Origin: Escherichia phage EC148
Reading direction: 5' to 3' (one strand)
Sequence record: NC_106721.1
DNA length: 64,000 nt
How positions within the stretch are numbered: position 1 is the first letter of the stretch; the number at the start of each line of letters is the position of its first letter. A program made the position numbers and the translations under genes. The notes beneath the pieces are model-generated. The model was not told the DNA's origin and ran no database searches. It was given only the letters and a program-made list of their open reading frames with translations. Of this stretch, positions 42,345 through 64,000 are shown in pieces.

Positions 42345-45178
42345 TCCACAGACTGTTCTCCATCATCTCCTTCTGCTCTAATACGAAAATATAGTTTTCT
42401 ATTTATTCCTAGAGCATCACTGTTATGAAGAGCAAAATCTGCCTTATTATACATTAATAAATAGTCATAAGTATACTGATTTTCAATACGTACACTTCTT
42501 AGCATTCTATTCTGGGAGTCATAGATTTCCAGAGTATAGAATATACTTTCTATTATATCTTCTTCTGGTATCCTATCCCAAGCTAGTTTTACATCTGGGC
42601 CTACAAATTCAGTTACATCCCCAGAAGCCGTATTAGTTACCCTAAAATTAGATACTACACTTAGGTTTTTAGCAGAGTTAAGTTCTATAGATAAGGTTAC
42701 TGGAGAACTTCTTCTACCATTTATATCCACAGCCCTTATTTCAAATATCGCTAAGCCTGCAGGCTCTCCAATTATCTCTTGGATCATGCGTTCATTGGGA
42801 TTTGTTTCTAGTTGCTGCACAATATAAGGCTCAGCATGCCCGGAATGCACGATAGAGTAATAAACTACGTTATTAGTTAAGCTTGGAAGCCAAGATAACT
42901 CACCATTTTTTCCTATAGAACCAACTAAACCACCGGGTGTAGGAGTATATTTAAAATCTCTAGGAGGAAGAACGTTGTTACTAATATCTGGTATATCATT
43001 ACCACTATTATCTACTTGATCAGAGTTGATAAATACATCTTCCCCATACTCCTGTAGAGTAACATTTATCTTTCCTTCTCTAGAGTTTTCGACTTCATCT
43101 ACTAAAAAGTACTTCTTATCCCATCCGTAACGGTCGTATGTAAATGCAATAGCATCGTTAGGCTCAATACCAATGAATTGATATGGTAAAGAAAATGAGA
43201 GGGTTCTAGAATACCTAGATTTCTTAAGTTCTCTGTCTGCAAAACTTCTAGCAGTATAGTAGTTAGTTATATTTGCAAAAGATAATTGTAATTTTTTATC
43301 TAAATTTTTATCCTGCTCTTTATATTTAGAGTTATAAAAGGTAATAGAGTTAGTTTTCCAGCTAAGAGCTGGGTCTACTATGGATGCTTGAACTGAGTTG
43401 AATTTATTTCTACCAGTAGTATCTGATAGCTCTAAATCACCATAAGTATCCAGAAAATTAATCTCTAATGGAGTATTAGAATATTTTTCTACAGTAATCC
43501 TATATTGACCAGATAAGTTGTTAATAGCCCCACCGTAGGATTCTAGTAAACCTTGCACATTTTTAAATACTGATTCAGATGTATCTAGAATAGTATTCAT
43601 TTGTACTATTTGTCTATTTTCTGCTAATGGATCAGTCCACCCAACATATCTCCAGTATGGCTGCCAGGATACTTGGTAAGATTCATCTATAATATCTAAG
43701 ATAGCAGCTTCTTGTACCAATTGTTGTAGGGGGAACTGATCAATAGCAATGTTTGCACCATACCTATCTGAAGTTAAGTAGTCAAGTGTTTGCCAAATAC
43801 CATTTAAACTAGTACTATTAGCAGTTACTCTACCATCAGGATGATAGATTTTTATCTTCTTACCCTGAATCTCAGCACTAACTTCTGGAATCTCAGTTCT
43901 ATTTTCATTAATAGTAAAGCGTACTACCGCGTATGCAGTATCTAATAGTTTATATCTAGCATCCCAGTACTCAGGCCCATTACCGTTCATATTTTGGAGA
44001 TAGAACCCACGTTCCTTCGCTATATTTACTAATACTTCAGAAGCCGTTTGATCAGCTTTTCCATGATAAGTCCAAATCCTTATATCACCATTACCATCAT
44101 TATATTTATATTCCTGACCGTGCACAGAAGGACTACTAGAAGATATTCCTGATGCTATTCTTTGCATGGTGTCTCCTGCTACTTTTTTAACACCGAAACA
44201 GGTTCTAGCAGAGCTATCATTAGAGTCCATACAAATCATAGGGTTATCCCCAAAGGAAAAGTCAAGAAAACCGTCTATCTCTCCTTCAGCAAAAGCGTAT
44301 ACTACGTAAACTATATTAGGATTGTGTAATTCCGTATCCGCAAAAATAGGTATTCCCGGTATTTTCTGTACACCATAAACTACTGGTATATACTTAGCAG
44401 CAAGGTTAAAATCTATATCTACTTCTTTAGTAACAGTCTCATAATACTTTTTAAGACTATAACTTCTAGATAGTCCAAATAGCTTTTTCTTAGACTTTAG
44501 CTTGTATCTTTCTTCCTGTACCTGATACTTTGCTAGAATAGAGATACTTTTATTGGCATGAAAGAACCCATAATCTTCCTGGTATTCAAGTCTTTTAGCC
44601 CCGTTAGATGGAACTAATTGTCCTGCTACAACCTCAAGCCCTCTATGAGAAGCATCATCAGTAAACCTACCGTTAACCCTATCAAAATCATAGAATTGGT
44701 TAGAACAATTCCAAGTAATTGTAGAGGTTCCAACCCCAGAAGTACTAATGTTGTCCTTAATACCTCCACCAGTAATTCTCCCTCTAAAGTATAATAAAGG
44801 GCCATTTGTGTCTGGGTCTACAGGTAAAATAGAACCATCCTCTGTAATAATTGCTTGGTGGATTGATACTAGTCTATCTAAAAAGGATACACCATTCTGC
44901 ACTAATTTCAGTACTTCATCCTGTGCTGTACCTGTAATAGTAAAAGATAGGCTGCCAATAGATAAATCTCTATTTTGTTTATGTGTGCTAATAGACTTAA
45001 CTTTACCGGCCTGGTACAAAATACCATTATATAGTACATCTCTAAAATAGTCAGTTAAGTAAATAAAAGCAGTACTAGTACCTGTAGAGCCGGGTAATTC
45101 TAGAGAAATTAGACTAGCAGTTTTTATTCTGCTATTATTTTTTAAGTAGTTTCTAGCACTATCTAATATTTTTTTCAT
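42329..45178 (-). CDS. baseplate hub protein (pb3-like)
   Basis: 949 aa; size and position between the Dit-like and pb4-like genes. Confidence 0.65.
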   Translation of the reverse strand: MKKILDSARNYLKNNSRIKTASLISLELPGSTGTSTAFIYLTDYFRDVLYNGILYQAGKVKSISTHKQNRDLSIGSLSFTITGTAQDEVLKLVQNGVSFLDRLVSIHQAIITEDGSILPVDPDTNGPLLYFRGRITGGGIKDNISTSGVGTSTITWNCSNQFYDFDRVNGRFTDDASHRGLEVVAGQLVPSNGAKRLEYQEDYGFFHANKSISILAKYQVQEERYKLKSKKKLFGLSRSYSLKKYYETVTKEVDIDFNLAAKYIPVVYGVQKIPGIPIFADTELHNPNIVYVVYAFAEGEIDGFLDFSFGDNPMICMDSNDSSARTCFGVKKVAGDTMQRIASGISSSSPSVHGQEYKYNDGNGDIRIWTYHGKADQTASEVLVNIAKERGFYLQNMNGNGPEYWDARYKLLDTAYAVVRFTINENRTEIPEVSAEIQGKKIKIYHPDGRVTANSTSLNGIWQTLDYLTSDRYGANIAIDQFPLQQLVQEAAILDIIDESYQVSWQPYWRYVGWTDPLAENRQIVQMNTILDTSESVFKNVQGLLESYGGAINNLSGQYRITVEKYSNTPLEINFLDTYGDLELSDTTGRNKFNSVQASIVDPALSWKTNSITFYNSKYKEQDKNLDKKLQLSFANITNYYTARSFADRELKKSRYSRTLSFSLPYQFIGIEPNDAIAFTYDRYGWDKKYFLVDEVENSREGKINVTLQEYGEDVFINSDQVDNSGNDIPDISNNVLPPRDFKYTPTPGGLVGSIGKNGELSWLPSLTNNVVYYSIVHSGHAEPYIVQQLETNPNERMIQEIIGEPAGLAIFEIRAVDINGRRSSPVTLSIELNSAKNLSVVSNFRVTNTASGDVTEFVGPDVKLAWDRIPEEDIIESIFYTLEIYDSQNRMLRSVRIENQYTYDYLLMYNKADFALHNSDALGINRKLYFRIRAEGDDGEQSVEWASI

Positions 45179-45789
45179 AGACTTTCCCGTAAATTTAGTG
45201 AGATGTTGGAGTATGTTCCGTTATTATTTAGTGTAGATCCAAAAGCATCACCATTCATGAGTTTTGTTCTAAATAGGATTCCATTAAATACTGGCTTCTC
45301 CGCTCCAGTAGTAGTTATAAATAAATCAGGGTATAAGTTTATAGACCATGTATTACCTGATTTGTTAAATGATGTTATTTTATATACTTTTGGGTGGTTA
45401 GACAGCTTAAATAGATCCCCCGGTTTTGGGGTACCTGTAAGAAACCCTTTTGTATCCATAGTTATATTAGAACCCTTCTGTCCAGCAGGTATATTTACTA
45501 GACTAGTATTACCTCTAACTCTAAAAGCTTCGTATTGGGGTAATATAACATCTATATAACCACCAGTCCTTTTGTATTCTAGAATAAAAGCATCTAGAAC
45601 ACTATATTCATCTGGAAATAATTCTGGATAAGAAATATTTATACCCCAGTATTGAGCAGATACCTTAACTTCGTTAACTTTACCATTTGGTAACTCATCA
45701 CGAATTACTGGGTCATTATCAATCAGGTTAACACTTTCGAATCCTAAGCCTGAAAGTTCTGGATTCGTGTATGGGTCTGGTAATCTCAT
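45175..45789 (-). CDS. distal tail protein (pb9/Dit-like)
   Basis: 204 aa; immediately downstream of the tape-measure gene; own sigma70-like promoter and AAAGAGGAGAAA RBS. Confidence 0.6.
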   Translation of the reverse strand: MRLPDPYTNPELSGLGFESVNLIDNDPVIRDELPNGKVNEVKVSAQYWGINISYPELFPDEYSVLDAFILEYKRTGGYIDVILPQYEAFRVRGNTSLVNIPAGQKGSNITMDTKGFLTGTPKPGDLFKLSNHPKVYKITSFNKSGNTWSINLYPDLFITTTGAEKPVFNGILFRTKLMNGDAFGSTLNNNGTYSNISLNLRESL

Positions 45790-45816
45790 AGTTAATTTCT
45801 CCTCTTTAATAACAAT

Positions 45817-45845
45817 ATTATAATAGTATTAGAAAATTTTATCAA
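45817..45845 (-). promoter_or_regulatory. sigma70-like promoter upstream of the Dit-like gene (TTGATA-17-TATAAT)
   Basis: Minus strand; located just after the tape-measure terminator. Confidence 0.55.
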
Positions 45846-45862
45846 GAAATTTTTATTTTTCC

Positions 45863-45891
45863 ATAAAGAAAAGGAGGACTCAAAGTCCTCC
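45863..45891 (-). terminator. intrinsic terminator after the tape-measure gene
   Basis: Minus-strand GGAGGACU-UUG-AGUCCUCC followed by UUUUCUUUAUGG. Confidence 0.65.
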
Positions 45892-45898
45892 TCCAGTT

Positions 45899-48800
45899 TT
45901 AAGAATTTCCTAATGTTTTCAGACTAGCACCGTTCTCATTCAGAGCTAATTCTACTGCGTCTCTTAGAGCACTACTATTACTAGAAGCAAACTCTCTAAA
46001 ACTTGCAGCATCCATAGCACTAATATTCAAGATGATAGGTCTTCCTGAAGTTGAGTTAGATGAAGTTTTTAGCTCATCATTAGGTGTAGCTTTCATAGGA
46101 ATCATAGGGGTAACTACTTCTGTACCATGCTCACCCATTTGATAGCTAACCCCAGGGTACATATTACCACCCTCAGCACGAGGAACGAAAGAGTTAGCGC
46201 TACCTATACCTTGATCGCCACGAATATAAGACAGTTCACCTGCATTAGCAGACATGGACACATCTATATTCTTCTGACGTTCTCCTAAGGTTAGGTAACT
46301 AGTTGTATCCGCTCCAGAATCTGCAATACTTGACATACCAGATGCAGAAGATGCTTGAGCAAGAGCTAAGGCACCTGCCAAACCTGCCGCCACCATCAAA
46401 GGAATAGAGAACGGGTACGGTACAGCTGTCGCCGCTTGCATTACAGCTACTGCAGTTTGGATGATGATCTGCTTCTTAGCTGCGTCTTGTTGAATCTTCA
46501 ACTTTTCAGCTTCTAGTTTCTTCAACTTAGCTTTAGATGCTTCTGATTTACCATCACGTTTCTGCTCTGCTGCAATAGCCTGATCAATTGCACTAACCTG
46601 TTGACTAGTACTATATTGAATCATAGAGGCCACAGTCTGCATACCTGCTGCGATCGTGGAAGTAGTGTCTAAAGACCCCATAGAGAACTGAATCATAGCA
46701 TTGGTTAAATTACCCATGCTTTGAGCTACAGCAGTTGCTTCGGAATTTAACTCAGATAGTTTAGAAATTGCCTGATCATAAGAAGCCATTCTATTTCCCA
46801 TATCAGCAAAATCTTTATCTTCTCCAGATAGTCCAGTTGTAGGAGTGTACACAGCACCTAAAGAAGATCCAACAGAAGCTTGCATCTCCGCATTTCTCTG
46901 TGCCCTTAAACCTGCTAGTTGTGCCCTAGTTTCAGCTATCTTTTTATTATATTCCGCTTGTGCCGCAGCATTACCTAATGTTTTCTGCTTTAAGTCTTCA
47001 TATAATTTTAGCTGTTCCTGTAAGCGCTCCGCATTTCCCATTAATGGTTTAGCAGTAAATTGTCTTTGCTGTTCTTCCTCTCTACCAGCAGCCATTGAAG
47101 CAATCTGATCTTGGCGGAATTTCCAGATTTCACGTTCAATTTGGGCTTGAGCACGTCTAGACTGTTCCGCCTCTTTCTGTTTATCAGCTTGTTTTGTATA
47201 CCATTCGTACTTCTCTTTTTCAATGGTCAATTCAAGATTTAACTGTGCTAAACGATACTGAGTATCTGTCATAGTACGGTTATTTAAGAGAGCTATCTCA
47301 CGGTCTACACCCAGAATTTTATCTGTATAATCCTTAACTTTCTTCTGAGCTTCCATACCCTGATTGGTAAGCTTAAGTTTCTCCAGCTGAATTTTTTCAA
47401 TCTCTTTCTCAACAGCTTTATTTCCCTGATTAGTTTGAAGTACACGGCGTAAAGCAGCCTCTTGCTCTTCTAACTGTTGGAGTTCTAAACGCCTACCGGC
47501 TTCCTGTGCTTTTTCTTTATCTTTAGTTTGGTTGTATACGTCAGCTATCTTCTGTTGAACTGCTAACTGGTTCTTAGTCTCATTACCGGTTAGTTTAACG
47601 TACTCAGATAAGGCCTGAGACGCAGTTTTCATTTCAGACAGAGTATTATAGCCTAGGTTAAGGTTTTTAACATACTCGTCTGCACTTTTACCAGTACCTT
47701 GAGATAGTGATTCTATATTTTTTATAGCATCTGCTAAAGTAGCACTAGTCTTAGCAGCAGTATCTGTATTCTGAGCAACGTTCTGTATATCATTAGCTAA
47801 GTCACTAGCAGTTTTCTTAGTCTGATTATATGCCTTTTGTTGTTCAGTTAGTCCTTTTAATACAGTAGAGTTAAAATCGTATACAGCATCAGGATCAGTA
47901 GTATCTCTCTGTAGATTAATCTGTTTCTGAAACTCTGGATTAGCTTTTGCAGCAGCAGCTCCAGCAGCCTGATAAGCTGATTTCCAAGCATTGAGGTTCT
48001 CTGTAGAATCCTCTACTTCCTTACCGAGTCTAGTTACTTGTAGACCCATAGCTGCGGTTTCTTCTACAAACTTTTTATTAGCTTCGGAAGCACCCGCGGC
48101 TGCAATACCAACAGGAATACCTTCACCAACTTGACGTATAGCTAGTTTTGTATAGAAATCTGCTTGTTCCATTCGTTTATCGAACTCAGATTTTAGCTTA
48201 TTACGCTTATCAAGAGATTCCTTATACATATCTAGAGCTTTATTATAGCCTTCTTCAGAAGCAGCTAAACTTAAAGCAACAGCACCAACGTTGGTAGGGT
48301 CTATCTGTCTATTAGTTTTTTCTTGAGCTCTAGCTGCCTCAGCAGATATAGAAGCCTGAGATGTATAAAATACTGTGTTGATAGCATCAATTACTGGCCC
48401 TAAATACTTAGCAGCAGCTTGTTGTATTTTTCTTAGTGCAGCATCTGCATTAGCAGCAAATTGCTCCCATGGAGTTGCACGTAGTACTTCATCTAGATAG
48501 CCAAACCGTTTAGTAGATTCAGCAATTACTGCATTAGCATATGCTTGTTGCTTCTGGAAAGTGGTAAGACTATTAACATTATATGTTATACCTGTGTTTG
48601 CAGCATTTAACTGTTTAACATAATCAGCGTATGCGTCATTAAGACGGATAGTGACACCAAGTTCATCCAGAAGTTCGATTTCTTGTTTAGATACGCCCTT
48701 AATTACACGGTTAAGTGCATCAGTCATATCAACGCCAAGAACAGCAGCCGCACGACGAGCTACTAAACCAAATTTATTAAGTTGTTCAGCATCAAATCCA

Positions 48801-57172: not shown

Positions 57173-58386
57173 TCTTTATCTCCCTCGGTGGAACCTTGAG
57201 GTCTGCCACCTTCTTGACCAGATACACCTGTTGCAGAACCAGCAACGTTAGCAGGAATACGAATCTTATCCATCTGCTCATCATCTAAAGGTTCAAGGTT
57301 CAGCTCTAAACGAGCTTCGTTACCAGTCATAATACCATTATTAACCAATGAGGTTAAATGTTTAGCCTCAGCTTCTTTATCTGGTGTTAATGCAGCTACT
57401 TCCTTAGTATTAGGAGTAATCTTATAACCAAAAAAGAAAGTAAGAGAACTAGTCAGTTTGTTCAGCATAGGAATGATAGTCATATAATAGAACAGTTCGA
57501 TATTTGGTCGAATGTTCGCATTATTACCACCATCAAGCAGTACTTGCGGAACACCAAAGGCTAGACAGATAGATTTATTAAATCCTTCAATGTCTTCCTT
57601 GAAGTCTAGGTCTTTAAAAGAGGATATTTGGGAGTACGGTTTAGCTTTCATACCACCATCTAGAATCAGGACAGAGGACTGACCAGTACTAGGATTATAA
57701 TCTAGTTGTAATTCTTCTTGTTTACGCTCACGCAATTTCTTGTTCAGGATTTCATCCGTCTCAAGAATAAGACCAATCACAGTTCCATTATCGAGGAATT
57801 TCTCTTTAAAGTTAAGCATCTTAGAACGCTTCTCAAGAGAGTCAATAACAGTAGCAACACGAGATTGTCCAGAAATTTGAGAATTTGTGCCACACACGTA
57901 ACTGTTATCCTTTATAAAGATAATCTCATCTACGCGATAGTCTATCTGGTTATTAAATATAAATTTTTTGATAAACTTATTGGCATCTGCCTCTACTTGC
58001 ATTAATGCAGCAGGGACATGGTAAAGTGCTGTGCCATCCCAATAGATGTATGCACAACCTTCAAAAAGTAGGTCAGTGACTACAAGTCTACGGAATGTGC
58101 TTATATCCATGAATGGATTAGGTCGTACATTTAAGAGAGTGTCTAGAGTCTTTGCCTTGATGCCATTGGCATACGTGACAATATTATATTTATCTCCGAC
58201 AGTATAAGAACACTCCGCCGCACTATCTATAACCATATTAGCAGTTCTATTGAGAATCTCAATTTTACTGTAGGCTTGTCCAGTGGTAAAAGGCTTACGG
58301 TTAGTGCGATGACTAACTGGTTCCATGTCTCTTATAATACGTTGACCCGGATTTAGCTTTTCAGTAATCCAGCTTTTAAAACCCAT
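57169..58386 (-). CDS. portal protein
   Basis: 405 aa; position between terminase/HNH and the head genes. Confidence 0.7.
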   Translation of the reverse strand: MGFKSWITEKLNPGQRIIRDMEPVSHRTNRKPFTTGQAYSKIEILNRTANMVIDSAAECSYTVGDKYNIVTYANGIKAKTLDTLLNVRPNPFMDISTFRRLVVTDLLFEGCAYIYWDGTALYHVPAALMQVEADANKFIKKFIFNNQIDYRVDEIIFIKDNSYVCGTNSQISGQSRVATVIDSLEKRSKMLNFKEKFLDNGTVIGLILETDEILNKKLRERKQEELQLDYNPSTGQSSVLILDGGMKAKPYSQISSFKDLDFKEDIEGFNKSICLAFGVPQVLLDGGNNANIRPNIELFYYMTIIPMLNKLTSSLTFFFGYKITPNTKEVAALTPDKEAEAKHLTSLVNNGIMTGNEARLELNLEPLDDEQMDKIRIPANVAGSATGVSGQEGGRPQGSTEGDKE

Positions 58387-58823
58387 TATAAGAACCTTGC
58401 GAATCCTGATTTTGTTTCAGTCTTGACTTGTGTCTTTTCTTGAGGATTCTGTAATTTGTCTTTCTGCTTTTGAACCCACACTTTTTGCTTATTAGCAGAA
58501 AATAAAGGAGGTTCTTTTGTGTAAACCTTATGTAATAATTGGTGATGGTGTACACAAAGGGTAACAGTGTCTTCTACTAGCTCATGCCTATATCGATCAT
58601 AGAATGCCGTCCTATTTGAAAGGACTATTTCTTCGTCAGTGAAATCCAATTGGAGTTCTTTAGCAAATTTTTTAACTAGTAGAGACACCGTATGGTAATG
58701 ATGAAGCTCTAATTCTTCAGCACAACCGCAGATAGCACATTGAGAGTCTTTTTTATATTGACTTTTTATTCCGTCTCTCATAAGGGATATAGCATCGCGT
58801 TTATATTTTATATTGCTTGCCAT
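58386..58823 (-). CDS. HNH endonuclease
   Basis: CAICGCAEELELHHYH ... CVHHHQLLHK (HNH/Zn motif). Start set at ATG 58823..58821 (GAGGAG RBS) instead of the ORF-track start at 58910. Confidence 0.7.
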   Translation of the reverse strand: MASNIKYKRDAISLMRDGIKSQYKKDSQCAICGCAEELELHHYHTVSLLVKKFAKELQLDFTDEEIVLSNRTAFYDRYRHELVEDTVTLCVHHHQLLHKVYTKEPPLFSANKQKVWVQKQKDKLQNPQEKTQVKTETKSGFARFL

Positions 58824-58937: not shown

Positions 58938-60254
58938 TTATTTACCACGGGAAATAGAGTAAATTCCATAGCGCAGAGCATCACAGAGGTGAGAGTTAGC
59001 ATCATGACGTGGTTTTTCACGTGATAATTTTTCTTCACCTTCTTGGAAATCCCACTTGTAATTCTGCAATGCGTGAATTAATGAGGAACATGAAGCATCC
59101 ACAATAATCTTGCCTTGTTGGAATAGTGCTTGTAAACATGCTAATCCATCTAGGACAGATTTTTTAGCTGGAGCCGATGCAATTTCATGTTCATAAGCTA
59201 AGTCCTGACGGAACTGAGCTGCGGCAGAGTCAACAAAAACACGATCAACTTTATAACGATCTATACAGTGCTGAATGTAAGCCGCATGCTGAGCTGTGGT
59301 TTTCTCCGCCTGCTGGTACTCTTCTAATACATAGTAGGTATCTGTATCATAGTGGTACTTAATAGTAAGAACTGCTGTAGGATCACGATAACCAACGTCA
59401 ATACCAAGCAACGTTTCGAATGCTTCATCATCTTTAAAGAAGTGACGCATACCTTTAAGGTCTTTAACATGGTCTATAGCATTAAAGGTATCAAAGATCT
59501 GACCTTCGAATACAGAGAAGTCAGCCTCATATTCCTGACGAAAGTAGTTTTTACTAACTGTACGACGTGCTTCTTCGATATCATTCAGATCAGCACGTGG
59601 GTTATCACGATACGTACCATGAATAGATACCCAGTTAGGTAATGTATCATCAAATCCATAGGCATAAAACTCTTTAAACCAGTTACCACCACGAGGAGTA
59701 GAGATAAATAGAGCCTTAGAGTTTGGTTTATCTAGGGTAGGACGCAACTGAACTCTAAAGGCATCACCACCCACATCGGAAATTGCCGCCTCATCAAAGA
59801 TGATAAAGTCATATGAACGCCCAACTGCGGAGTCAGCCTGCGCCGCAGAAGCTAGTTTAAACAGAGAACCATTAGCTAACTCAATCTCTTTATCTTTAGC
59901 ATTCTCACGTTCGGTTTGTAGGCCATATTTTTTAATAAGACCACGAATCTGAGACCATCCGATGTTGGCCAGTGAGTAGTTAGGAGCAACTACTAGCACC
60001 TTTACGTTAGGCTCCAGCAACTTTAGAAACCCAAGTGTGTATGCGATGAAGGATTTACCTACACGGCGTGATACACACGCCGTTACAAAACGATGTCTAG
60101 GGTCTTCTAGCGCATTGATAATCGCTATTTGAGGACCATTAGGTGTAATACCCTCTTGAGCTAGTATTCCTGAAACAGGTAGACGAAAGAAACGTTTGTC
60201 TATTCCGAAATCAATAACATCAACTGTGTTAACGTAGGGTCTTGATACTTCCAT
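58938..60254 (-). CDS. terminase large subunit
   Basis: 438 aa; P-loop VSRRVGKSF; C-terminal nuclease-like half. Confidence 0.85.
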   Translation of the reverse strand: MEVSRPYVNTVDVIDFGIDKRFFRLPVSGILAQEGITPNGPQIAIINALEDPRHRFVTACVSRRVGKSFIAYTLGFLKLLEPNVKVLVVAPNYSLANIGWSQIRGLIKKYGLQTERENAKDKEIELANGSLFKLASAAQADSAVGRSYDFIIFDEAAISDVGGDAFRVQLRPTLDKPNSKALFISTPRGGNWFKEFYAYGFDDTLPNWVSIHGTYRDNPRADLNDIEEARRTVSKNYFRQEYEADFSVFEGQIFDTFNAIDHVKDLKGMRHFFKDDEAFETLLGIDVGYRDPTAVLTIKYHYDTDTYYVLEEYQQAEKTTAQHAAYIQHCIDRYKVDRVFVDSAAAQFRQDLAYEHEIASAPAKKSVLDGLACLQALFQQGKIIVDASCSSLIHALQNYKWDFQEGEEKLSREKPRHDANSHLCDALRYGIYSISRGK

Positions 60255-60736
60255 TACTTCTTACCTCCAGTAGCTAGGGAAGTAATTAAGTCCATGTAGT
60301 TTTGATCCCCAGCTCCAGCAATAATATTATTCTGGATATTGGTCTGATTAGCAGGAGCACGGACGGCAGCTTTAGCTTTTTCTAGCTCCACCATCATTTT
60401 CATCTCTTCCATCTTCATTTTATGTGCCTTCCAGAGAATATCCATAATATCCTGGTCAGAACCCATGCCAGTTTCTTCCAGTTCCTCCAGCTTACGTTTA
60501 ATAACTTCATCTAGAACACCGAACAAACGATCTCTGTTACGGAATCCACTCTCCATAAAAATATCGTTCAAGTAATTCTTAACTTCACTACGATTCATAA
60601 TATCTCGGAAAGCAATTTCAGACATTCCAAGACTACGTGCGGCAGAAGGCACATCGCTACCGCACTGTAAATAAGCTTCAATCACATCCATCCCTTCAGG
60701 GGACATAAGATCTGGTACTAATACATCATTTGCCAT
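60254..60736 (-). CDS. terminase small subunit (putative)
   Basis: 160 aa; N-terminal HTH-like segment; immediately upstream of the large subunit with ATGA overlap. Confidence 0.55.
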
Positions 60737-60746
60737 ATTTCCTCCT

Positions 60747-62504
60747 TTAGGTAAGGCGTTGAACTGTTACTCTTAATCTAGGTAGAAAAACTGCACTACC
60801 TAAACTTACGTGCATAACTACCCCTAACTCTACATTTCCATTCCCCAGATTTTTAGCAGTATATATAAAACTATTTCTACTTAGGGCATTGTTAGGTGTG
60901 TATCTAAAAGCAGATGTAGTATGAAAAGGTACTAAATACCCTACTGGTAATGTTAAAATCTGGTGGAATATCGCGTCACCATTACTATAACTATATGCTC
61001 TTCTTCCTTGCACCTGAAACACACCGTTATTCCATGTATTAGCAGGGACACCTGCACAGTTAAGATTACCTGATATAACTTCAGTGGTAAGAATTACTGT
61101 AGCATTGCCACCCGGTATACCTAGCCCAATAGTTGATAAACCAACGTATCTATCTCCTGTTCCTGGGTAGCTGGGGGTAATATCATCTCCCATATAAGAA
61201 CTACCTACATTTCCACCAAAAAGTCGTAATGGAACTGCTGATGGTCCCCAAACAACCCCGTGTTCATTACCGATAGTATTATCATTAGAGTTTACGTACC
61301 ATTGCTTACCAGCTCCGAATTTGTAAATACTAATTTGAGACTTAGCCCCTCCATAGTCCACAGGAGACCATAAACTCCCGTTACTAGAACCTACAAGTTC
61401 ACACCTTGCGGTGGTATCCCCAAAGGCCCCAGTATATGCTGCATTATTTCCAATATATTCCATATCTGGTCTATAACCTAAGTTACCGAAAGCGTTCTGG
61501 TTAATAAACTTGTATCCAGTATTGGGAAGACTAACCCCTTTAATTATGAAATTAGAAGGAGATATAAGAATATCTGAACCAGTAAAAGGATTACCAGAGA
61601 TACTCATACCACCATTTGAGTATCTTAAATTCAAAACGTACCAAATAACTTTAGTAGGAGTTATGTTATACCAATCTTGTAGTATTGTAGAATCACCAGA
61701 TTGATTAGCTAAATTAGTTGTAGAACCCCTACAAACAAACCTATTACCCCCATCATGATACATAGTATTTACATTACCAGGAAGACCTTGTCTTACCCCA
61801 CCATACCCACGTATGTTAGAGTTACAAACATAGAACCAATCGTGCCCTCTGTGTGCTGATCCTAAAGGAGACATCCATCCTGGGTCCCAGTAATTTTGGT
61901 TATTCCCATCTATAGGTACTGTACTACTATTAGTAGGGAATCCTAACTGTGCAAAAGCTTCTGCAACAGTAACCCCTACTGGAGCTCCTGCACCTGGCCT
62001 AACTATACCATGATACGTACTATGTAGGGTAGTTCCACCAGTACCATTCCTAGAAATAGATTCTTCATGCCCTATAGATGGATTATAGTTATATGTACCA
62101 GATGCCAGGCTATTACCAAATGCAAATCCACTAGTCTGGGAAACACTAGCAAAAGATCTAAAAGGATCTGCTTGAGTGGCAACTATAGTTTGACCCACCT
62201 TACTCTGAGTACCATTAAGAAAAGCTCTGTGAGTACCATTAATCTCAATAGCAGTTAATATAACTCTACCAGGATCGTTAGATTTAATATTTATTATGTC
62301 AGAGGGCATCTGACATACAAAAAACCCATTTCCGGCATTTCCTAACCCAGCCTCATAAGTACCATCAACTAGGACAAATGGCATATCACTATGAAAAATA
62401 CTATTGGCATTTGGACTATAGTGACGATTAATGTCACCACCAGATTCAGTATTTAAAGATAGTACGGTCTTACCATCGCTATATTTTCCAGCGAAAAAAC
62501 CCAT
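60747..62504 (-). CDS. receptor-binding tail protein (pb5/Oad functional analog)
   Basis: 585 aa; Gly/Asn/Ser/Tyr-rich; divergent from an llp-like lipoprotein gene as in the T5 oad-llp arrangement. Confidence 0.6.
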
Positions 62505-62529
62505 ATAATCTCCTATTATAAAAATGTAT

Positions 62530-62558
62530 TTGCTTTCATCCCTCTATTTTGCTATAAT
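62530..62558 (+). promoter_or_regulatory. T5-type early promoter driving llp (TTGCTT-17-TATAAT)
   Basis: Followed by AGATTCATAAATTAGAAATGGAGAG and the llp ATG. Confidence 0.7.
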
Positions 62559-62589
62559 AGATTCATAAATTAGAAATGGAGAGATAAAT

Positions 62590-62856
62590 ATGAAAAAGTT
62601 TGTGATTGCACTAGTTGCCGCAGTTATGTTATCTGGTTGTGCACCTGCTCCCAAACCATTTTGTACTGGATTTGTAAAATCTTTTGGTGGTGCGGGAGAA
62701 GAACATTACGGCCTCAAGGTTCAAAAAGTTCGTATTAAGGGAGATCGCTTCCCAGTAGTACAGCTCCGTACTAAGTTTGGATGGTGGGATCTCAGTCAGT
62801 TTGACCTTAAATATGGTGATTGTAAATTTAAACTAGAGCAATCTAACTACCTGTAA
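62590..62856 (+). CDS. llp: receptor-blocking lipoprotein (Llp-like)
   Basis: 88 aa; signal peptide with lipobox LSGC; T5-type early promoter 62530-62558. Confidence 0.7.
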   Translation: MKKFVIALVAAVMLSGCAPAPKPFCTGFVKSFGGAGEEHYGLKVQKVRIKGDRFPVVQLRTKFGWWDLSQFDLKYGDCKFKLEQSNYL

Positions 62857-63034
62857 TTAGTATAAAGCAAAAAGACATCTAAGTAAACTAAATTTTTTAT
62901 TTTTTGGATGGTATATTGGCAGAAACCACTATGTAAGAAAATGAGAAGTCCTTCTAGGAAGTCACAAGCATGGTTGGTTATATACAAATTATAAAATATT
63001 TTTAAAATACCATACTCATAGGAGCAAGAAAGAT

Positions 63035-63163
63035 ATGTCAAATAAAAGAAAGAACAGACGCGGAGAAGTGTACGAAGCGTGGATTAATATTTACGGATTT
63101 GGTTTTGTATTATTCCTAATCTTCGTAGGTTTTTGGTTAGCAGCTATGGCGGGGTGGATTTAA
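63035..63163 (+). CDS. small membrane protein (42 aa)
   Basis: Found by hand (below the ORF-track cutoff); AGGAG RBS; basic N-terminus then one hydrophobic helix. Confidence 0.4.
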   Translation: MSNKRKNRRGEVYEAWINIYGFGFVLFLIFVGFWLAAMAGWI

Positions 63164-63318
63164 TGGAATGGGTAATTATTGGCATATTCGTCTTATTGAT
63201 ACTTCTCTTTGTAGGCTTACGTGTAATAGATACCTCTGTAACCCAAACAGAAATTAAATTAATGCAGTTGAGTAATAGATTATCTAGAATTGAAACTTTA
63301 TTAGAGGAGCGTAAATAA
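63163..63318 (+). CDS. small membrane protein (51 aa), MEWVII family
   Basis: ATG at 63163 overlaps the upstream stop; N-terminal TM helix and C-terminal SRIETLLEERK. Confidence 0.45.
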   Translation: MEWVIIGIFVLLILLFVGLRVIDTSVTQTEIKLMQLSNRLSRIETLLEERK

Positions 63319-63425
63319 TGGAATGGGTAATTATTGCACTACTGGGGATTGTGATTATTGGGCAATGTATTTTAGATAATCATTTAGCTAGAATTGAAAC
63401 CTTACTATCGGAGAAACGTAAATGA
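63318..63425 (+). CDS. small membrane protein (35 aa), MEWVII family
   Basis: Found by hand; MEWVIIALLGIVIIG...ARIETLLSEKRK; paralog of the previous gene; TAATG overlap. Confidence 0.4.
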   Translation: MEWVIIALLGIVIIGQCILDNHLARIETLLSEKRK

Positions 63426-63616
63426 TGGAAGTGGGAATTACACTAATAGTAATATTAGTCTGGGTAATCCTCATTGTCTCTCGTATCGTGTATCTCCGCC
63501 TAAAAACTCTAGAAGCTCAGGTGAAACAACAACAAGTTATTCTAGAAAAGTTAGTACTACTGCAACGTTGTGATAGCACCCGTATTCTGCAAATTGAGAG
63601 GGAATTAGATGTTTAG
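63422..63616 (+). CDS. small membrane protein (64 aa)
   Basis: ORF track; N-terminal TM helix then predicted coiled coil; ATGA overlap. Confidence 0.45.
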   Translation: MMEVGITLIVILVWVILIVSRIVYLRLKTLEAQVKQQQVILEKLVLLQRCDSTRILQIERELDV

Positions 63617-63854
63617 TATTGTAATTGCTTTTATTATCGGGATACTTGCGGGAGTTTTCGGGACAACTGCGGCAATCAACAAGCATCGTAAATATATTGC
63701 GGAAGTATCGCGGGAGATTGCGGAAAGGGAGCGGAAGTTTGACGAGAAACGTGCGGAGTTTGAGCGGGAGTGGTCGGACGGATCTCGGGCGTCGCGGAAG
63801 AGATTCCGTGAGTTCAGACCAGAACACAGGTTTGATGACCATTCTATGCGCTAA
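63609..63854 (+). CDS. small membrane protein (81 aa) with charged GC-rich C-terminal half
   Basis: ORF track; N-terminal TM helix; C-terminal Arg/Glu-rich region encoded by unusually GC-rich DNA. Confidence 0.45.
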   Translation: MFSIVIAFIIGILAGVFGTTAAINKHRKYIAEVSREIAERERKFDEKRAEFEREWSDGSRASRKRFREFRPEHRFDDHSMR

Positions 63855-63967: not shown

Positions 63968-64000
63968 TTCACCCTGCAACCATTTTAATTGCAGGGTGAA
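63968..64000. other. 12-bp perfect inverted repeat (hairpin) at the window edge
   Basis: TTCACCCTGCAA (63968-63979), 9-nt loop, TTGCAGGGTGAA (63989-64000). Confidence 0.7.

Follow-up and report, generated by a model that had tools for sequence, protein, structure and literature searches.

A probable host-recognition and lytic-conversion module of the BtuB-specific BF23 type in a T5-like phage

Toward the right end of the 64,000-nucleotide stretch of Escherichia phage EC148 DNA analyzed here (NC_106721.1; "the window"), the ORF list places a gene for a 585 amino acid protein on the minus strand (60747-62504) back to back with a gene, llp, for an 88 amino acid lipoprotein precursor on the plus strand (62590-62856). 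The locus raises the question of which host receptor the larger protein recognizes, and whether the smaller protein, a candidate receptor-blocking (superinfection-exclusion) outer-membrane lipoprotein, closes that same receptor to other phages. The original prediction, made from the DNA letters alone, had paired a 585 amino acid minus-strand ORF divergently with an 88 amino acid lipoprotein carrying the lipobox LSGC, and its coordinates and lengths were exact. Very probably, a T5-like phage (Tequintavirus) uses this locus for host recognition and lytic conversion, in the BtuB-specific version known from BF23.

In such a module the 585 amino acid protein would be a late-expressed receptor-binding protein (RBP) at the tip of the straight central tail fibre, and its irreversible binding to the vitamin B12 transporter BtuB would trigger DNA ejection. 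The divergent llp gene, read from its own sigma-70 promoter, would yield a lipoprotein precursor that receives its lipid at Cys17 and is then delivered to the outer membrane, where it sits in the inner leaflet; by binding BtuB, Llp would make it unusable as a receptor and exclude superinfecting BtuB-dependent T5-like phages, and probably would also prevent progeny phage from being lost on debris. As T5 Llp does with FhuA, Llp probably attaches to the BtuB plug on the periplasmic side and so brings about an allosteric closure of the extracellular loops. Gene structure, sequence identity and homology, synteny, the promoter, and the lipoprotein features come from the present analysis; for BtuB dependence and exclusion activity we rely on publications about proteins that are identical or nearly so, and the periplasmic jamming of the BtuB plug is what we infer.

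The gene pair and its surroundings

The RBP and llp start codons diverge across an AT-rich intergenic region of 85 bp (62505-62589), and each gene is preceded by a Shine-Dalgarno sequence read directly from the DNA: AGGAG (62510-62514, minus strand), 5 nt upstream of the RBP ATG, is kept in the aligned BtuB-type phages, and GGAGAG (62578-62583, plus strand), 6 nt upstream of the llp ATG, is identical in five Tequintavirus BtuB-type sequences. By PHROGs assignment, terL occupies 58938-60254 and terS 60254-60736, the latter only 10 nt from the RBP gene. The predicted T5 oad-llp arrangement was thus found in full, with a full-length pb5 homologue adjoining the terminase genes near the right terminal repeat and divergent from a lipoprotein gene whose product is identical to BF23 Llp; the gene order is common to T5, BF23, DT57C, Bas32, OSYSP, and Stitch. 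Neither ORF is a chance reading frame, as tblastn detects homologues of the RBP in 539 phage records and of the lipoprotein in 400.

When positions 60400-63400 were compared by megablast, vB_EcoS_MM-1 and MM-2 matched with 99.9% identity over 100% of the query, and a further 437 T5-like records, mostly of Salmonella and Escherichia phages, were also found. MM-1 and MM-2 (PV577657/8) are Tequintavirus isolates from German sewage that were grown on E. coli K-12 W3110. The MM-1 record labels the two products as a receptor binding tail protein and a Cor superinfection exclusion protein; their genes have the terminase genes on one side and, on the other, a series of small ORFs extending to the right terminal repeat. 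A literature search found no paper describing phage MM-1.

Five small ORFs also follow llp in the window, head to tail on the plus strand between that gene and the right terminal repeat (63035-63854), and encode 42, 51, 35, 64, and 81 amino acids. They match, in order, phrog_8596, 6369, 6369, 5851, and 6447, and the N-terminal segment of most of them is hydrophobic. The second is a paralogue of the third, with the same start (MEWVII) and the same PHROG, and the 81 amino acid product has a sub-threshold match to LapA_dom. The number and length of these ORFs differ among relatives, BF23 and OSYSP carrying a single 63 amino acid Orf1 that replaces the first ORF(s). Mapping onto the MM-1 annotation, where the right terminal repeat runs from record position 107633, puts the start of the repeat at about 63896, and the window (ending at 64000) therefore ends just within the terminal redundancy. 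On the other side of the terminase genes, a 145 amino acid ORF on the minus strand (58386-58823) separates the portal gene from terL; it has no Pfam match and is hypothetical in the MM-1 and T5 annotation, and its Cys/His-rich motifs (CAICGC...HHYH...CVHHHQLLH) suggest a zinc-finger or HNH-like protein.

The receptor-binding protein and its predicted receptor

We place the 585 amino acid protein in the pb5/Oad/Hrs family of receptor-binding tail-tip proteins, as a probable BtuB-type allele. It matches PHROG 4815, "receptor binding tail protein", over its full length (residues 1-585, E 6.7e-275), the T5 pb5 structures in the PDB (8b14_B/8a8c_B, E 2e-50), and T5 pb5 end to end by BLASTP (E 2e-55). 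All RBPs compared keep the N-terminus MGFFAGK and the C-terminus QRLT. The similarity search against characterized T5-family RBPs that had been proposed earlier predicts BtuB: the protein is 97.9% identical to the RBP of Bas32 (IrisVonRoten), 73% to that of DT57C, 67% to BF23 Hrs (69% in global alignment), and 56% to the RBP of Yersinia phage phiR2-01, all four of which have BtuB as receptor. Identity to the FhuA binder T5 pb5 is 29% locally and 35% globally, and to the FepA-binding RBP of H8 28% and 35%, so the suggestion that the receptor might be other than FhuA agrees with these values. Receptors are not reported for the RBPs of MM-1 (100%), OSYSP (72-73.5%, the global value being 73.5%; its record calls it similar to that of SPC35), and the Epseptimavirus phages (about 70%; Stitch, 70.5% globally). 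The tblastn ranking is empty between 55.6 and 30.5% identity, which puts the window RBP cleanly within one cluster. Its length had been judged short against the roughly 640 amino acids attributed to T5 pb5, and that protein does have 640 residues, but a length of 585-595 amino acids is a trait of the whole BtuB-type clade and not of this phage alone.

The receptor predicted for the window phage is thus BtuB, based on the cluster in which its RBP falls together with published work on identical and near-identical proteins. In global alignment, the RBP groups with those of phages shown by experiment to be BtuB-dependent, apart from the FhuA and FepA clusters, and it is paired with a BF23-type, BtuB-blocking Llp. 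Maffei et al. described three RBP clusters, BtuB, FepA, and FhuA, that are predictive of the terminal receptor, and list BtuB as the terminal receptor of Bas32 in their table; IrisVonRoten is also described as BtuB-dependent in PMC10373560. BF23 Hrs binds BtuB and BF23 Llp blocks it, btuB mutants resist DT57C, and on cells expressing the DT57C llp gene from a plasmid BF23 and DT57C plated more than 100-fold less efficiently, with T5 unaffected (PMC4728585). FepA specificity was considered and ruled out by the 28% identity to the H8 RBP.

The gene encoding this protein is mosaic. Sliding nucleotide identity is 93-97% in terS (to DT57C) and 94-98% in llp (to BF23 and DT57C), but drops to 59-81% inside the RBP gene relative to BF23 and DT57C. 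At the protein level, comparison with OSYSP gives 100% identity over residues 1-90 and 97-100% over residues 331-390, with low stretches of 40-70% at residues 91-270 and 47-70% at residues 451-570. Four loops of T5 pb5 enter FhuA, including L1 near residue 115, L2 near 170, and L4 at 570-590 (PMC9586334), and the alignment suggests that these loops fall in or near the variable stretches. Relative to Bas32, the RBP gene has 168 synonymous and only 12 nonsynonymous codon differences, which points to an old allele under strong purifying selection. In the phage database, this RBP allele (at least 95% identity) occurs in about 100 records and this Llp (at least 95%) in about 179, and one blocker therefore serves several RBP alleles. 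The pattern of a variable RBP beside a nearly invariant llp was already described by Golomidova et al. in 2016 (PMC4728585).

Two other readings of the locus turn on the RBP. That the pair is indeed an RBP/Llp module, but with an RBP allele uncoupled from its BtuB-type Llp and directed to FhuA, FepA, or some other TonB-dependent transporter, would be in keeping with the RBP gene being a recombination hotspot (60-80% nucleotide identity to BF23 and DT57C inside the gene versus 94-98% across llp) in which the presumed receptor-contact regions are the most divergent. It has a published counterpart in Citrobacter phage Cit2, whose RBP is 97% identical to that of the window: PMC12980165 (2026) gives the identity between the RBPs of Cit2 and T5 (NC_005859) as 96.9% and infers that Cit2 uses FhuA with a "decoupled" BtuB-type Llp. 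That identity could not be reproduced, however, since direct comparison of the Cit2 RBP (758-2515 of locus L011) with the 640 amino acid pb5 of NC_005859 (4428-6350 of locus L010) gives 30%, although the other values in that paper agree with ours (66.7% to BF23, 73.2% to DT57C, and 27.7% to H8). The FhuA inference for the Cit2 allele is therefore unsupported by the sequences cited and looks like an error; by sequence, the Cit2 allele belongs in the BtuB cluster, and FhuA specificity, which had come into consideration through that paper, was ruled out by the same 30%. Further against a change of receptor, the allele is 69-74% identical (globally) to each BtuB binder tested versus 35% to the FhuA and FepA binders, the 97.9% identical Bas32 protein has BtuB as its listed receptor, and DT57C, whose RBP is as divergent from BF23, uses BtuB experimentally and is excluded by a BF23-type Llp (PMC4728585). 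We regard a non-BtuB receptor as very improbable. Even further from plausible is that the 585 amino acid protein is a non-adhesin structural tail protein and the lipoprotein an unrelated moron. Neither Pfam nor NCBIfam has a model matching the 585 amino acid protein, but it is a full-length homologue of T5 pb5, whose complex with FhuA is solved, and the lipoprotein has the same sequence as a receptor blocker whose function has been tested; the homology data effectively refute this reading already.

The lipoprotein, its promoter, and the block of BtuB

Expression of llp from a promoter of its own, as had been predicted, is supported by a sigma-70-type element on the plus strand at 62530-62558: a -35 hexamer TTGCTT (62530-62535), a 17-nt spacer that includes the TG of an extended -10 (62550-62551), and a -10 hexamer TATAAT (62553-62558). 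The BF23 record DQ097178 annotates these same elements as minus_35 and minus_10 signals of llp. Both hexamers and the 17-nt spacing are invariant in all seven intergenic regions aligned (window, BF23, DT57C, Bas32, OSYSP, Stitch, and T5), and the TG one base upstream of the -10 is present in six of them, T5 being the exception; the T5 records do annotate divergent promoters in the same RBP-llp spacer. A generic promoter scan left the llp promoter unflagged because its -35 matches TTGACA at just three of six positions. The promoter would make llp transcription independent of the late RBP transcript, and its timing is presumed early from what is known of T5. No terminator is claimed for llp, as a scan after the gene found none and the 185 nt downstream folded without significant structure (z -0.54).

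The 88 amino acid protein starts MKKFVIALVAAVMLSGC, comprising a basic n-region, a hydrophobic core, and the lipobox L-S-G-C. The signal peptide spans residues 1-16, and Cys17 (62638-62640) is followed by Ala at +2, giving the cleavage context MKKFVIALVAAVMLSG|C-A; Pfam LPAM_1 matches with 23.9 bits (cutoff 20). Under the +2 rule of Lol sorting, Ala at this position predicts an outer-membrane lipoprotein, and the residue is not the Asp that would argue otherwise; Llp is thus predicted to reside in the outer membrane. It is 100% identical to BF23 Llp (AAZ03643) and one residue different from DT57C Llp, and its exclusion of BtuB-dependent phages is expected from the literature on these two proteins. 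Llp matches PHROG 1119 over all 78 profile positions (1-78, E 1.8e-26), a family that T5 Llp also matches (E 1.1e-19). Three Cys residues do not vary: Cys17, Cys25, and Cys78, of which the last two (positions 9 and 62 of the mature protein) occur in all 12 family members compared. In T5 Llp, a Cys11-Cys58 disulphide ties the termini together (PMC9586334), and the pattern of lipid-Cys plus Cys25/Cys78 parallels the lipid-Cys plus Cys11-Cys58 of that protein, here as seen in sequence conservation.

T5 Llp binds the plug of a TonB-dependent transporter from the periplasm and causes the extracellular loops to fold inward (PMC9586334). A T5-like jamming of the plug is, by analogy, the most likely mechanism for the BF23-type protein as well. 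In a fuller proposal, the BF23-type and T5 proteins are distant homologues, and the former jams the plug of BtuB on its periplasmic side and thereby shuts the extracellular face through reverse allostery; the evidence tips the balance only modestly in favor. The family is narrow: a homologue search of 5.8 billion proteins found 11 clusters, which made for a shallow AF2 alignment, and NCBIfam and Pfam gave nothing beyond the generic lipobox model. A PDB sequence search with Llp returned noise, matching no solved structure, and no structure of a BtuB-Llp complex was found. T5 Llp was the single best structural match in the PDB, and Foldseek of the Llp model against the PDB gave nothing with an E-value below 0.39; the model weakly supports a fold shared between BF23-type and T5 Llp. 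Alignment of the Llp family to T5 Llp by hhalign was limited to the signal peptide and first Cys, and homology of the mature domains is therefore not claimed as demonstrated. To our knowledge, older papers called the two types of Llp non-homologous.

It may be that the module is as described but that Llp blocks BtuB in a way unlike that of T5 Llp, through direct occlusion from outside, interference with BtuB assembly, or an effect on TonB coupling instead of loop conformation. We consider this unlikely. The window and T5 lipoproteins fall in one PHROG family and resemble each other in lipoprotein architecture and size, in the pattern of Cys residues, and in the position and promoter of their genes; T5 Llp tops the structural matches; and Ala at +2 predicts an outer-membrane, periplasm-facing location like that of T5 Llp. 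Moreover, RBP alleles with different contact loops, at least three of them, are all served by an identical Llp, which fits general closure of the receptor better than competition for a single epitope. If correct, jamming of the plug from the periplasm would explain how one invariant Llp (98.9-100%) can serve at least three RBP alleles whose receptor-contact regions retain 67-74% identity: the RBP would be free to diversify by recombination as the loops of BtuB vary, because the blocker would work on the periplasmic side, which is conserved.

Comparison with known systems

There is nothing new about the locus as such. The gene pair, the allele, and the mosaic evolution are all already published, for BF23 (2006), DT57C (2016), and the BASEL phage Bas32 (2021), and a near-identical locus (MM-1) is in GenBank. 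What the analysis does allow, with confidence, is an annotation label, a BtuB-dependent Tequintavirus with a BF23-type superinfection-exclusion lipoprotein, and the label is useful for phage cocktail design because loss of btuB or expression of Llp would give cross-resistance to the many phages sharing BtuB. Of minor value are the corrected FhuA assignment for Cit2 and the weak, model-based structural support for a shared fold of the BF23 and T5 types of Llp.

Compared with BF23 hrs-llp (DQ097178; Mondigler, Ayoub & Heller 2006), the locus shares gene order, divergent orientation, intergenic promoter, and BtuB receptor class; the Llp proteins do not differ at all, and the two phages also agree in the small ORFs farther downstream and in the right terminal repeat. 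BF23 Hrs does differ, being 67% identical and 595 rather than 585 amino acids long, with the largest differences at residues ~91-270 and 450-570. MM-1/MM-2, Bas32, and Cit2 have the same RBP allele (100, 97.9, and 97%, respectively) and the same Llp (98.9-100%); the MM-1 locus is essentially identical to that of the window (99.9% DNA identity over 3 kb), and Bas32 departs from the window RBP gene mainly at synonymous sites. In DT57C and DT571/2 (Golomidova et al. 2016, PMC4728585), a BF23-type Llp with one substitution accompanies a divergent RBP, with a recombination boundary between the two genes; with 73% identity to the window RBP and 71% to BF23 Hrs, the DT57C protein represents a third allele.

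In the FepA-binding phage H8 (AC171169), the RBP gene (44702-46612 of locus L009) adjoins a terS that is 94% identical to that of the window; tblastn (E <1e-3) detected no BF23-type or T5-type Llp homologue in the first 100 kb of the 104-kb record, and an H8 blocker, if one exists, would be of a different sequence type. The T5 oad (pb5)-llp pair shares the architecture, promoter hexamers, pb5 fold family, PHROG 1119 lipoprotein, and Cys pattern, and its complexes have been solved (FhuA-pb5, 8a8c and 8b14; FhuA-Llp, 8a60). T5 differs in having FhuA as its receptor, in its RBP (29% identical, 640 amino acids), and in its Llp, which is 28-30% identical to that of the window, has 77 amino acids, and is not cross-protective; a similar small beta-barrel fold is tentatively predicted for the two lipoproteins. 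The Cor lipoproteins of T1/phi80-like phages are likewise small, reside in the outer membrane, and inactivate a TonB-dependent transporter used as a phage receptor; they fall in the same PHROG family, and Cor of phage grams gives a weak direct match to the window Llp (34% identity, E 7e-4). Cor differs, however, in belonging to another phage family, in its genomic context downstream of gpJ, and in its targets, which are mostly FhuA.
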